Sequence record: PV660448
Length of the DNA: 64,000 bases
Origin: Escherichia phage LF82-4
Direction: 5' to 3' (one strand)
Below the pieces are notes generated by a model. It was not told where the DNA came from. It saw only the letters and a program-made list of their open reading frames with translations, and made no database searches. This document shows, piece by piece, positions 14,502-58,092 of this stretch. How positions within the stretch are numbered: the stretch's first letter is position 1; each line of letters starts with the position of its first letter. Made by a program: the position numbers and the translations under genes.

Positions 14502-14813
14502 TTATACCGCCATTTTAGCTTTGATAGCTGGATGTGATTCGTAATTTTTAAGAATGAAATCACTCGGATTCATATGCTCTGTTACCCAATGAAGCTGTAA
14601 TGTCGTGCTCCAATCAGAGAATCCTTCAGGCCAATCAATTTTAAGTTCACACAGTTCTTTAGGCTCACGACGAAGAACTTCTTTGCATTGTTCTACATGA
14701 TTGCTGTAGATATGCGTGTTGCCGCCTGAGAACACTAAATCACCTGGGATAAGGTTACACATCTTCGCTACAATATGCGTCAAGGCAGCGTACGAGGCAA
14801 TGTTGAATGGTAG
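14502..14813 (-). CDS. td: thymidylate synthase, exon 2
   Basis: encodes LPFNIASYAALTHIVAKMCNLIPGDL... C-terminal TS segment; joins exon 1 at 15831. Confidence 0.85.
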   Translation of the reverse strand, partial: LPFNIASYAALTHIVAKMCNLIPGDLVFSGGNTHIYSNHVEQCKEVLRREPKELCELKIDWPEGFSDWSTTLQLHWVTEHMNPSDFILKNYESHPAIKAKMAV

Positions 14814-15830
14814 CATTATGTTCAGATAAGGTCGTTAATCTTATCCCGGAATTATATCCAGCTGCATGTCACCATGCAGAGCAGACTATATCTCCAACTT
14901 GTTAAAGCAAGTTGTCTATCGTTTCGAGTCACTTGACCCTACTCCCTAAAGGGATAGTCGTTAGGCATTTATGTAGAACCAATTCCACTTATCAGATTTT
15001 ACACGGTAAGTAACTAATCCTGATGAAATTTCAAAATGTCTAGCCGCATCGGCTGCACATTCAAAAATAATCCCGTCGCATGAAATCTTTTTGATGTTAG
15101 CTGGCTTTTTGCCTTTCATCTTTTCAGATAGTTTAGTTTTAGTTTTTTCTGAATGTTTGTGATTAAAGAACGGGTTATTTTCAGCTGAACGTTTTCGACA
15201 CTTTCCACAAGTGTTGGCTGAAGTTGGTATACGAACACCACATTTACAAAACTTGTGGTTTTCCGGATTCCATCTACCATTTTTACTTCCGTGTTTACCA
15301 TAAATAGCTTTTCGACCATCAGATCCAAGCTTAAGCATCTTAGCTTTAACAGTTTCAGCTCGTTTCTTAGCAATTTCTTCCTTTAATGGATGATTCGAAA
15401 ATGTATCACCAAAGGACGCATCGGCGATATTATATCCATTAATTTTAGAATTTAGCTCGTTAATCCAAAAATTTTCTCGTTCAATAATCAAATCTTTCTC
15501 ATATGGAATTTCTTCCAATATAGAGCATTCAAAAACATTACCGTGTTTATTAAAAGATCTTTGAAATTTTATAGAAGAGTGAACACCATTTTCAAGGTCT
15601 TTAAAATGTCTCTTCCATCTTTTCTCAAAATCTTTAGCACTTCCAACATACACTTTACCATTTAAAGTGTTTTTAATCTGATAAATTCCACTTTTCATAA
15701 ACACCTCTTTAAAATATAGAAGTATTTATTAAAGGGTGGTCCTACAATTTAGCACGGGATTGTCTACTAGAGAGGTTCCCCGTTTAGATAGATTACAAGT
15801 ATAAGTCACCTTATACCCAGGCCTAAATTA
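14814..15830 (-). mobile_element. group I self-splicing intron in td (about 1017 nt) carrying I-TevI ORF
   Basis: 5-prime end TAATTTAGGCCTGGGTATAAGGTGACTTATACTTGTAATCTATCTAAACGGGGAACC matches recalled T4 td intron; exon 1 ends in U, intron ends in G; splicing restores TS frame. Confidence 0.85.
14961..15698 (-). CDS. I-TevI: GIY-YIG homing endonuclease I-TevI (intron-encoded)
   Basis: 245 aa from MKSGIYQIKNTLNGKVYVGSAKDFEKRWKRH...; recalled near-identity to T4 I-TevI. Confidence 0.9.
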   Translation of the reverse strand: MKSGIYQIKNTLNGKVYVGSAKDFEKRWKRHFKDLENGVHSSIKFQRSFNKHGNVFECSILEEIPYEKDLIIERENFWINELNSKINGYNIADASFGDTFSNHPLKEEIAKKRAETVKAKMLKLGSDGRKAIYGKHGSKNGRWNPENHKFCKCGVRIPTSANTCGKCRKRSAENNPFFNHKHSEKTKTKLSEKMKGKKPANIKKISCDGIIFECAADAARHFEISSGLVTYRVKSDKWNWFYINA

Positions 15831-17201
<1,371 letters not shown>

Positions 17202-17711: not shown

Positions 17712-18074
17712 CTATTTTATTCCAAAAATTTCTTTAATTTCTGCAATCACATCTCGAGCATTTTCTGTAGTCACTTCAAAGATGAGTGATTGTTTAGAAA
17801 TAGACTCTGGAGATACCTCGATGAAGTGTTTAAACTCATCATCATAAAGCTCAAAATATGAACCTGGCTTACCATCAAAACCGAATTCAGTACCGTCTCG
17901 CATAGTTACACGGGTTACACATTTATCATCATCATAATCTGTGTTCATGTCTTTTACAACAAAACTAGGACCATGAAGCTCAATCAAAGCCAGCATATCG
18001 GCGTTTTGTGGGCATTCATTGGCGAAGATAGCTTTACATTCTGGATTGATGATATAAGTTTTTCCAATTTTCAT
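17712..18074 (-). CDS. hypothetical protein, paralog A (120 aa)
   Basis: clear sequence similarity to ORF 18136-18522 (M.IGK.YIINP..K..FANEC...LIE.HGPSFVV...RVTM.DGTE). Confidence 0.55.
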   Translation of the reverse strand: MKIGKTYIINPECKAIFANECPQNADMLALIELHGPSFVVKDMNTDYDDDKCVTRVTMRDGTEFGFDGKPGSYFELYDDEFKHFIEVSPESISKQSLIFEVTTENARDVIAEIKEIFGIK

Positions 18075-31749: not shown

Positions 31750-31779
31750 TTTGAATAAATATCCTTAAAAGGAGGGTCT

Positions 31780-55731: not shown

Positions 55732-56253
55732 TTAGTACCCATTATCCTGACGTTCAAAGTTGTGTTGGTTTTTCAAGTAGTAAAGTTTAAAGATTTCTTC
55801 AGCCGAAAGACCAAGACCTTGGAACATGTTCAGAACGAAATGCAGAATATCAATCATTTCAAATTTAATTTCAAGCTGGTCTTCAGGAGACAGTTCATCG
55901 ATACGACGATTTCGATATTCAGCATGTTGTGCTTTCCATGGCTTCCATACACTGCTAGCGGCTTTTTCACCATTGCTCATACCACCAAGTGAAGTCAGCA
56001 GTTCACGGAATTCATCATCAATATAATCTTTCTGATTACGCAGCCAATCAACAACATCACCAGCAGTAGCCAATTCATCAGGATGTTTGTTATGTTCAGG
56101 CTTGTCATTTGCCAGACGAACCTGTAAAGATTTCTGCATATCAAGCATTACCTGCAGTGGGTCTTTATCTTCGTGAATCAGAGCATTAAAATAAGCTTCT
56201 TCTGCTTTATCAACACCAGAAATAAGTTGTGAACATTCGTTAAAGTGTGCCAT
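55732..56253 (-). CDS. 56: dCTPase / dUTPase (MazG-like pyrophosphatase)
   Basis: start set at MAHFNEC; recalled similarity to T4 gp56. Confidence 0.85.
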   Translation of the reverse strand: MAHFNECSQLISGVDKAEEAYFNALIHEDKDPLQVMLDMQKSLQVRLANDKPEHNKHPDELATAGDVVDWLRNQKDYIDDEFRELLTSLGGMSNGEKAASSVWKPWKAQHAEYRNRRIDELSPEDQLEIKFEMIDILHFVLNMFQGLGLSAEEIFKLYYLKNQHNFERQDNGY

Positions 56254-56341
56254 TATTTTTCCTTTCAATTCAGTATAAGAGAGTTAATTCTAACATTAAT
56301 TTTATAAAGCGTAATAAATAATAGGTAACCAAGGAGATATT

Positions 56342-56539
56342 ATGTTTAAACTTCCATCGTTAATCAACGCTATTAAAGGCAATAAAAAGAAAACTGCTAT
56401 CGCTGCAATAGTTGTAGGTGGCATTATTTCATGGAACTTCGGTATCGCACCGGTGTTAGTTGCTAATGGTATTATAGTTCCTTCTGTTCCATTGGATACT
56501 GTAGTTGATTTGGCCTTTGCTATTATAGGGCTTGTTTAA
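56342..56539 (+). CDS. small hydrophobic membrane protein (65 aa) on opposite strand to neighbours
   Basis: strong RBS AAGGAG 7 nt upstream; two predicted TM helices. Confidence 0.45.
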   Translation: MFKLPSLINAIKGNKKKTAIAAIVVGGIISWNFGIAPVLVANGIIVPSVPLDTVVDLAFAIIGLV

Positions 56540-57558
56540 ATCTTCGAATAACGAGATAATCTCATTTTAGCATGCAACCCACTTGAAATATTCTGTTTCA
56601 TATATTCTAAAATTTCTTGTGGTGTTGCATTTTCTTTCATTACCATATCATTCACATCCTTTGAACTCCATGGAGCTCGGTCCCAGAACATGACACGTTC
56701 GCCTGCATCAACTAATCGCTTCATGCGAGCTATAGTATCTGGATGCCTAGGTTCATTATCCATTACCCATACCCGACGTTCTTTAAATGGTACCACATCT
56801 AAATCTATTGAGCCGCCTGTAATAGCGATTGCATTGGGTATGAATAAACTATCAATAGGACCTTCCATTACCCAGACGTCCCCTTCCTTAACACGTTCAA
56901 CACCATAAATTTTTGTTGCAGACTCAAACGCTTTAATAGTGATATATTTCTGAGGAGCATCTTTACGAAGTGCACGTCCTTGGAATGACTCAGCCTTCCC
57001 GTCTTTATTAAAAATAGGAATCACTAAACGTGGTTCGGGAATCTCTTTCTTATACGTACCAGGTTGAATCTTGTTGACCAATTTGGGCCATTCTAATGTG
57101 AACCATAATCTGTTCCATGATTCTTTAGGAATACACCGAGACTTAACATATTTCACAATAGGATGCTCTTCAGGCAACTTGTCCAGACGAGAACAAGACG
57201 GCAAAGAATTTATAGTCTTTTTCTCTGGTTCTGGTTTATGTTCAGGAACCTTTTCAATCTTTGGTTCCATTCTAGCTTTTTCTTTACGAACTTCCATTAG
57301 ATACTCGCGATAAAGCTCTTCATCATACTCTTTTAAGTATCCGGAAATTGTATTATGATATTGACAGTTATAGCAATGCACATTACCTGGAGTACCGCCA
57401 TAATACCATCCGCGGGCTTTCATTGCATCTGTCTGAGAGTCACCACAAACTGGGCATCGAAATGTTAATTTAAATGTGCTTGAATTATTGATTTGTCTAA
57501 AACGAGGTAGGTGAGAAAACGCACGATAAGCAAATTCATTATCTATCCATTCAGCCAT
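56536..57558 (-). CDS. 61: DNA primase gp61
   Basis: 340 aa; zinc ribbon CPVCGDS...HCYNC. Confidence 0.9.
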   Translation of the reverse strand: MAEWIDNEFAYRAFSHLPRFRQINNSSTFKLTFRCPVCGDSQTDAMKARGWYYGGTPGNVHCYNCQYHNTISGYLKEYDEELYREYLMEVRKEKARMEPKIEKVPEHKPEPEKKTINSLPSCSRLDKLPEEHPIVKYVKSRCIPKESWNRLWFTLEWPKLVNKIQPGTYKKEIPEPRLVIPIFNKDGKAESFQGRALRKDAPQKYITIKAFESATKIYGVERVKEGDVWVMEGPIDSLFIPNAIAITGGSIDLDVVPFKERRVWVMDNEPRHPDTIARMKRLVDAGERVMFWDRAPWSSKDVNDMVMKENATPQEILEYMKQNISSGLHAKMRLSRYSKI

Positions 57559-57597: not shown

Positions 57598-58092
57598 TCA
57601 CAACTTATTAATATTTACTTTAATTCGCTTTCTTTTCTTGGAAGGAATTTGTTCTGGACCTTTATTTACGACTGCACCTGTAGTTGTTCCTGATGCAATA
57701 GCTTGAGGGCTGCCACCTGAATCACCAGCAACCATATCCTCGAATAAAGGGAGTTCTTTAAATATTTCTTTCTGCTGTTCTTCCGTAATGTTATAGCGTG
57801 AAGCTACAGCACTCCAGGCAGACATCATTGAGGCCATTCCATTAAGACCTGGAACAGTACTCATCATTCGCTTCATTGAACGAACTGAAGCATGAAAAGG
57901 TGTATAAGCCGCTTTCTCTTCGGGAGTAGAAGGACGTTTAAGAACACTTCCACGTTCGTCGATTATTTTGGCTTCGTACGCTTTCCATTCGGTAAAAGGT
58001 TTTTGCATTAGTCGAATAAACTTATATGCGTAAACAGAATCTATTGCAGTGTTAATAATACCCATAGGTACCTCCTGAGTATATTTAATCAA
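57598..58092 (-). CDS. hypothetical conserved protein (164 aa), 61.1 position
   Basis: ORF track; synteny. Confidence 0.5.
   Translation of the reverse strand: MIKYTQEVPMGIINTAIDSVYAYKFIRLMQKPFTEWKAYEAKIIDERGSVLKRPSTPEEKAAYTPFHASVRSMKRMMSTVPGLNGMASMMSAWSAVASRYNITEEQQKEIFKELPLFEDMVAGDSGGSPQAIASGTTTGAVVNKGPEQIPSKKRKRIKVNINKL

Follow-up and report, generated by a model that had tools for sequence, protein, structure and literature searches.

A small gene convergent to gene 61, conserved among T-even phages and predicted to encode a late membrane protein, in the dam-less gene 56-61 interval of Escherichia phage LF82-4

The region between genes 56 and 61 of T-even phages is well described for T4, in which the order of genes in the reference record NC_000866 is soc-segF-56-dam-61 and in which dam encodes a D12-class N6-adenine methyltransferase (GATC). 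The corresponding region of RB69 contains a small open reading frame (ORF), RB69ORF029w, which is also known as RB32ORF030w (cited in the wV7 record) and as 'dam.1' (RB33 record) and is grouped in PHROG 2024; all named members of this family are described as 'hypothetical protein'. The present analysis concerns the same region in a 64,000-nucleotide stretch of Escherichia phage LF82-4 (record PV660448; hereafter the window, i.e., the whole stretch of DNA that was analysed), in which genes 56 and 61 are separated by 282 bp (56254-56535). An earlier reading of this DNA (hereafter the original prediction) had placed dam correctly on the T4 map, and had described the interval as a gap of about 280 bp with a 65-codon plus-strand ORF, an AAGGAG ribosome-binding site and an orientation opposite to that of all neighbours. 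Both the coordinates and the content of the interval were borne out (Table 1), and the annotated neighbours of the small ORF, which are soc, 56 and 61, were all on the minus strand. Compared with T4, the window has the same genomic slot with homologous flanks on both sides, but the dam cassette that is present in T4 is absent. Compared with RB69ORF029w and its relatives, the small ORF of the window has the same strand, the same place convergent to gene 61, the same overlap of stop codons at TTAA and the same Shine-Dalgarno sequence; it is a member of this family and differs from it in nothing of substance. The account that is considered highly probable is that the dam cassette is absent from a variable slot and that the conserved neighbour of gene 61 encodes a late, bitopic inner-membrane protein.

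The identity of the small ORF was determined from profile and tblastn searches. The 65-amino-acid (aa) product matched the PHROG 2024 profile from end to end (E 1.4e-26, residues 1-65 on positions 1-65 of 65) and was 95% identical to RB69ORF029w, and tblastn performed with this product detected 708 phage records, 690 of which covered at least 80% of its length. The gene was convergent to gene 61 in Tequatrovirus, Mosigvirus, Gaprivervirus and Moonvirus, and a convergent copy with a weak match to the family profile (E 2.6e-5) was noted on a distant metagenomic T4-like contig (L016). The opposite-strand position, tail-to-tail with gene 61 and on the side of gene 56, was seen in the window, T4, RB69, HY03, RB33, wV7, KM16, CJ20 and L016, and the TTAA stop overlap of the window was also seen in all of these except CJ20, in which a gap of 118 bp separates the ORF from gene 61. 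Comparison of the window with RB69 indicated 10 synonymous and 3 non-synonymous changes (ratio of non-synonymous to synonymous rates, dN/dS, 0.087), and comparison of T4 with HY03 indicated 11 and 5, respectively (dN/dS 0.12). Between genera, synonymous sites were saturated and the proteins were still 44-55% identical. Because the ORF is intact in 690 of the 708 records and is under purifying selection, it is not a chance frame, and these comparisons identify it as a genuine protein-coding gene, which has kept both its frame and its place in no fewer than four genera. A different reading, according to which the frame is non-functional and the region is kept for regulatory DNA, whether this is the promoter of gene 56, the 3' terminus of gene 61 or an oriA-like origin, would accord with the presence of a gene 56 middle promoter inside the interval, with the proximity of oriA in T4 and with an ORF that is short, AT-rich and unannotated in the T4 reference. 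This reading is extremely improbable, however, given the synonymous bias of both sets of changes (dN/dS 0.09-0.12), a frame that stays open for 59-68 codons where the DNA no longer aligns and synonymous sites are saturated, the conservation of the Shine-Dalgarno sequence and ATG, and the location of the promoter elements upstream of the ORF rather than inside it.

When 1.84 billion representative proteins were searched exhaustively with the family profile, 11 clusters were recovered, all of small proteins (45-72 aa) of the same family, and the full-length members among these shared a common core. Since only these 11 clusters were found, the family can be regarded as narrow and specific to T-even phages. 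One borderline relative (P0049, E 2e-4), on metagenome contig SRR24146878_90693 (129-1383), lies 5' of a same-strand gene for a 352-aa protein with a RelA_SpoT domain, a context that differs from that of all other family members.

The T4 homologue of the small ORF was located at 17738-17938 (+) of NC_000866, between dam and gene 61. This homologue has 66 codons, is 54% identical to the window protein, matches PHROG 2024 with an E value of 4.6e-31 and, as in the window, overlaps gene 61 by the 4-nt TTAA at its stop codon. It is without a feature in NC_000866 but is called as PHROG 2024 in a pharokka-annotated T4 record (OZ209057), and the exact T4 protein appeared in the protein collection from raw-read assemblies only, with no NCBI accession. 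The statement in the original prediction that the small ORF stands in this interval instead of dam did not hold, as T4 contains both dam and a homologue convergent to gene 61; for the same reason, the small ORF was rejected as a replacement for dam. One consequence of the missing annotation is that proteomic, transcriptomic and knockout screens based on the T4 reference would miss a probable late membrane protein.

The absence of dam itself, as originally proposed, was evident in the interval, in the window and in the closest complete genome, that of Escherichia phage LF82-9. Thus, tblastn with T4 Dam gave only chance matches in the window (best E 0.49) and a best E value of 1.8 in LF82-9 (170,850 bp), and the annotation of LF82-9 included no methyltransferase. 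The catalytic motif (D/N/S)PP(Y/F/W/H) was sought in every LF82-9 ORF with 80 aa or more and occurred in only two, the products of which (159 and 109 aa) are too small for amino-methyltransferases. Because the tblastn searches, the LF82-9 annotation and the motif scan were all negative, the lineage of the window very probably lacks a phage Dam. Relocation of dam to a position outside the window, with the DNA still methylated by a phage enzyme, has in its favour that 64 kb of approximately 170 kb were visible and that gene order varies where T-even genomes are plastic; against it stand the results for LF82-9, which is 96-99.7% identical to the window and contains neither a T4 Dam homologue nor an annotated methyltransferase nor any protein large enough for such an enzyme that has the amino-methyltransferase motif, and this possibility is accordingly given hardly any weight.

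Lack of dam in this slot was also noted in RB69, LF82-9, OLB35 and WFL6982 and, among Tequatroviruses, in RB33 and wV7, which have the layout 56, small ORF, 61, exactly as in the window. T4-type Dam (at least 90% identity) was found in 182 phage records as opposed to 549 records with the Tequatrovirus-type small ORF. Other contents of the slot included dam and a 186-aa ORF in HY03, a short pyrophosphohydrolase-like ORF in KM16 and three small ORFs in L016. Local alignment of the 88-bp intergenic region of the window indicated similarity of the left half to the region upstream of T4 gene 56 and of the right half to sequence 5' of the T4 small ORF. Since the two halves align to separate T4 flanks, the dam cassette of approximately 0.9 kb would be the sole insertion or deletion between the window and T4 here. 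The dam-less yet window-like arrangement of RB33 and wV7 therefore points to dam as an accessory cassette (approximately 0.9 kb, consisting of dam and its own promoter region) in a variable slot, and to the small ORF as a fixed neighbour of gene 61. T-even phages commonly differ from one another in whether dam is present. Two other candidate observations on this slot were discarded. HY03, considered as a dam-bearing Mosigvirus, is a Tequatrovirus, and 344 bp of extra DNA in OLB35, considered as content of the dam slot, is located between soc and 56.

The original prediction also proposed a different DNA-modification status, and this proposal stood only in part. The absence of dam was supported, but the small ORF does not bear on the matter; because T4 carries both genes and the dam-less phages RB33 and wV7 match the layout of the window, the small ORF is uninformative with respect to DNA modification. 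Moreover, arabinosylated cytosine in the DNA of Mosigviruses, which is independent of the 56-61 locus, has already been published (PMC6024577, PMC13390438). Genes for an arabinose-5-phosphate isomerase and a phosphoheptose isomerase, which are candidate pathway genes for cytosine arabinosylation, are present in LF82-9 outside the region represented by the window. The sequence GATC was approximately five-fold under-represented in the window (43 observed, 209 expected) and similarly so in LF82-9 (115 observed, 543 expected, observed/expected 0.21), compared with observed/expected values of 0.73-1.0 for other 4-bp palindromes in these sequences. In T4, which has dam, the corresponding values for positions 70001-120000 were 0.39 for GATC and 0.64-0.72 for other palindromes. 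Depletion of GATC is thus general in T-even phages and is relatively stronger in the dam-less lineage of the window.

Late expression of the small ORF, raised as a possibility in the original prediction, was found to be plausible from a conserved promoter motif. Late promoters of T4 have TATAAATA at positions -13 to -6; in T4-like phages, A or T is common at -13 (PMC1524935). The sequence AATAAATA, located 21 nt 5' of the ATG of the small ORF, agrees with this rule. The core ATAAATA was rare in the window (9 plus-strand and 7 minus-strand sites) and marked known late genes; canonical TATAAATA was noted 5' of genes 34, 36 and soc, and AATAAATA was noted at 31754-31761 (+), 19 nt 5' of the ATG of holin gene t. 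A further copy of AATAAATA, as opposed to canonical TATAAATA, was present at 15723-15730 (-), 5' of an I-TevI-like ORF. At the homologous loci, ATAAATA was found 16-21 nt 5' of the ATG in Mosigvirus, in the dam-bearing phages T4 and HY03, in the dam-less phages RB33 and wV7, in Gaprivervirus and in L016, and the sequences that flank this conserved motif have diverged in all five lineages. No sigma-70-like promoter was found on the plus strand upstream of the small ORF. Most likely, the small ORF is transcribed on its own from AATAAATA as a gp55-type late promoter.

The region upstream of gene 56 contained a MotA-box-like cGCTTTA (56305-56311) separated by a 12-nt spacer from a -10 sequence, TAGAAT (56287-56292). 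This region aligned with the sequence upstream of T4 gene 56 in which record X01416 annotates P(M)16.53, and a middle promoter of RB69, Pm:16038 (-), was predicted at the homologous place (Nolan et al., 2006). Function of these elements as a MotA-type middle promoter for gene 56 is inferred, and the 88-bp spacer can be read as two back-to-back predicted promoters of different temporal classes. Since no terminator was predicted on the plus strand after the small ORF, a late transcript may read on, antisense, into gene 61. This raises a further alternative, in which the principal function of the locus is an RNA that would aid the late shut-down of primase. The convergent genes with overlapping stops and no intrinsic terminator predicted downstream, and the tail-to-tail link with gene 61 in most lineages, are what such a function would lead one to expect, but purifying selection acts on the amino acid sequence and the ORF of CJ20 lies 118 bp away from gene 61. 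An antisense RNA could coexist with the peptide and would leave conservation of the protein unexplained, and as the main function it is judged improbable, although somewhat less so than a chance frame or a relocated dam.

The predicted protein has the features of a bitopic membrane protein. In an alignment of 14 family members, the invariant residues were M1, L7, K12, K15, W31, N32, P37, G43, P47, L51 and G63, and the core was a basic N-terminus, W-N-[FY] inside a transmembrane (TM) helix and P...G...P...L[DE], which was also recognized in distant members (P0043-P0049). For RB69ORF029w, TMHMM predicted a TM segment at residues 21-41 and SignalP predicted no signal (Nolan et al., 2006). The AlphaFold2 model of the window protein calculated with the family alignment (predicted local distance difference test, pLDDT, 81) contained helices at residues 3-13, 15-41 and 51-62. 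Net charge was +5 for the Lys-rich N-terminal part and -2 for the C-terminal part. By the positive-inside rule, this bias favours an orientation with the N-terminus in and the C-terminus out. The two-helix membrane peptide of the original prediction was retained for one helix (residues 15-41, approximately, by AlphaFold2 and 21-41 by TMHMM) and abandoned for the second span, as a C-terminal helix of 12-15 residues is too short and too polar to cross a membrane. From the model, the product is better described as one TM helix followed by a short periplasmic or interfacial C-terminal helix, and the invariant Trp-Asn within the TM helix suggests specific helix-helix association.

The same features were examined with respect to a cleavable signal peptide, in which case the N-terminal 42 residues would be a Sec signal and the active product a secreted, hydrophobic periplasmic peptide of 23-24 residues. 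The basic n-region and the hydrophobic core are of the kind expected, as are a Pro six residues before the putative cleavage site (-6) and a small residue just before it (-1), and some members, but not others, have an A-x-A-like motif before a conserved (H/N/Y)-G (AIA|HG in T4, ALA|HG in TH41 and ALA|YG in KM16). However, the n-region (17 aa) and the hydrophobic region (approximately 24 aa) are longer than is usual in signal peptides, P0048 has F at -1 and other members have T, the window protein has L at -3, and the invariant W-N within the hydrophobic core argues for a functional helix. Together with the negative SignalP and positive TMHMM results for RB69ORF029w (Nolan et al., 2006), these points make cleavage unlikely.

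The proposed sequence of events for the bitopic protein is as follows. Transcription from AATAAATA would be expected to start at approximately 56326-56327, back-to-back with the gene 56 middle promoter, and translation would follow from the strong AAGGAG site. The 65-aa product would be inserted in the inner membrane late in infection, with the Lys-rich N-terminus (+5) in the cytoplasm, a single, marginally hydrophobic TM helix that includes the invariant Trp-Asn and an invariant Pro, and, on the periplasmic side, an acidic, hydrophobic C-terminal tail of 24 residues that contains a short helix. Contacts between helices within the membrane, which would involve the polar Asn, could be made between copies of the protein or with a membrane protein of the phage or the host, and the outcome might be the tuning of a late envelope event, e.g., lysis timing, lysis inhibition or exclusion. 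The physiological role of the small protein is a guess, because no homologous family with a known function was found in Pfam, NCBIfam, the PDB (by fold) or the profile search. One such guess is that the protein is an unrecognized late envelope effector whose invariant Trp-Asn TM motif engages holin T, antiholin RI or a membrane protein of the host, so that the timing or inhibition of lysis, or the exclusion of superinfecting phage late in infection, would be tuned; as a specific proposal this is tentative and has rather a low probability.

The nearest systems for comparison of such a role are holin T and antiholin RI of T4, which likewise are small inner-membrane proteins, driven by late promoters, with a single N-terminal TM segment. 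The promoter variant and spacing of gene t in the window are identical to those of the small ORF, but compared with holin T and RI the small protein is without sequence or profile similarity, without a large periplasmic domain and without nearby lysis genes. Bacterial small membrane regulators such as AcrZ, MgrB and KdpF bind larger membrane proteins through one TM helix. The likeness to these regulators, which may be seen in length (approximately 30-70 aa), in the single TM helix and in the conserved polar and aromatic residues of the helix, is an analogy of mechanism only, as there is no homology and the small protein is phage-encoded and predicted to be late.

A role in lysis, whether as a holin, as a pinholin-like protein or as a helper of holin T and antiholin RI in the timing or inhibition of lysis, is the most attractive specific guess, but it is doubtful. 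Agreement with gene t in the AATAAATA variant and in promoter-Shine-Dalgarno-ATG spacing favours this role, as do the small size, the predicted late expression and the single TM segment. The weakly hydrophobic TM helix, rich in Gly, Ala, Ser and Thr, also recalls signal-anchor-release domains. Further, the homologue from phage OE5505 (A0A482MZV5) is labelled 'Holin' in UniProt, but this name was assigned by a submitter or automatically rather than from a test. No match to a holin family was found in Pfam, NCBIfam or PHROGs (in which the category is 'unknown function'), and no fold match was found in the PDB. The gene also lies outside any lysis cassette, among replication and nucleotide genes, and a complete set of lysis genes (t, rI, rIII, e and spanins) is already annotated in LF82-9.

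Several results weigh against the account of a late bitopic inner-membrane protein with an envelope role in a phage without dam. The TM segment of the window protein was only marginally hydrophobic (+2 to +3 kcal/mol by a simple Hessa biological-scale sum), as compared with approximately -1 to -3 kcal/mol for the TM segment of CJ20. The late motif departs from the T4 sequence at one position (7/8 matches), and only ATTAAATA stands at the homologous site of KM16. Decades of T4 lysis genetics are not known to have mapped a function to this locus. With respect to role, none of the 11 clusters has a known function, searches of Pfam and NCBIfam returned nothing for the window and T4 proteins, and Foldseek gave no match in the PDB and family members only in BFVD. 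With the distant member P0048, a single NCBIfam match was obtained, to AaeX and below threshold (E 0.013, 15.8 bits as opposed to a cut-off of 82 bits). The literature on RB69ORF029w, dam.1 and unannotated T4 genes near dam and 61 yielded nothing, whether transcript, ribosome-profiling or mass-spectrometry data for the ORF in any phage, and none of the 31 predicted late promoters of RB69 is located 5' of ORF029w (Nolan et al., 2006). Finally, the search for dam covered 64 kb of this phage itself and, beyond that, its relative LF82-9. A cleaved signal peptide, an antisense RNA, a non-coding region and a relocated dam are all less likely.

Much of the above is already known in the sense that the gene has long been annotated as hypothetical and the absence of dam is visible in public annotation. 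The new points are that the T4 reference annotation omits the gene and that a conserved late-promoter motif of its own precedes it; purifying selection on the PHROG 2024 gene is also quantified here. If the protein does act on lysis or exclusion, it would be a new component of one of the best-studied phage systems. These findings carry little weight for genome biology at large, and the arabinosylation of cytosine in Mosigvirus was described before.

Features of the interval and of its borders are listed in Table 1. Relatives of gene 56 are labelled as nucleoside triphosphate pyrophosphohydrolase or dCTP pyrophosphatase. The match of gene 61 to Pfam DNAG_N (23.6 bits, E 5.9e-5) was below the curated cut-off of 26 bits. 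With Rfam at gathering thresholds, no RNA family was reported anywhere in the window and hence no known RNA in the 56-61 interval.

Table 1. Coordinates of features in and around the gene 56-61 interval of the window
Feature	Position	Strand	Basis
Gene 56 (dCTPase/dUTPase), left border	55732..56253	-	ORF list; Pfam dUTPase_2, E 1e-6; ATG 56251-56253
MotA-type middle promoter of gene 56 (predicted)	56287..56311	-	Sequence reading, T4 alignment, published RB69 prediction
Putative gp55-dependent late promoter AATAAATA	56313..56320	+	7/8 matches to TATAAATA, A at -13
Shine-Dalgarno AAGGAG, 5 nt 5' of small-ORF ATG	56331..56336	+	AAGGAG(G) kept at all homologous loci
Small ORF, 65 aa (RB69ORF029w / 'dam.1' / PHROG 2024)	56342..56539	+	ORF, profile match
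TTAA, convergent stops overlapping by 4 nt	56536..56539	both	Small-ORF TAA 56537-56539; gene 61 TAA 56536-56538 (-)
Gene 61 (DNA primase), right border	56536..57558	-	ORF; DNA primase label in all relatives

Comparison with other phages allows the window to be assigned to Mosigvirus, i.e., to an RB69-like T-even phage. The segment 55400-57700 was 99.7% identical to the Mosigvirus LF82-9 and was covered over at least 80% of its length by 155 phage records, and the whole window was collinear with positions 32004-95023 of LF82-9 at 96-99.7% identity. The small ORF is annotated in LF82-9, WFL6982, RB69 and OLB35.

Two minor observations were made elsewhere in the window. The thymidylate synthase gene (14502-16379, -) is split into exon 1 (15828-16379) and exon 2 (14502-14816), with an I-TevI-like GIY-YIG ORF (14961-15704) between the exons, as in the td group I intron of T4; 1,019 bp at 14811-15829 are missing from LF82-9, and no group I intron was reported by Rfam at the gathering threshold. 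The ORF at 57598-58092 (-) had no Pfam match, and the protein at this position is hypothetical in the other records checked, including gp61.1, a conserved hypothetical protein, in RB69. In KM16, a 154-aa protein at the same position, 5' of gene 61, is labelled 'major capsid protein', which is probably an annotation error.

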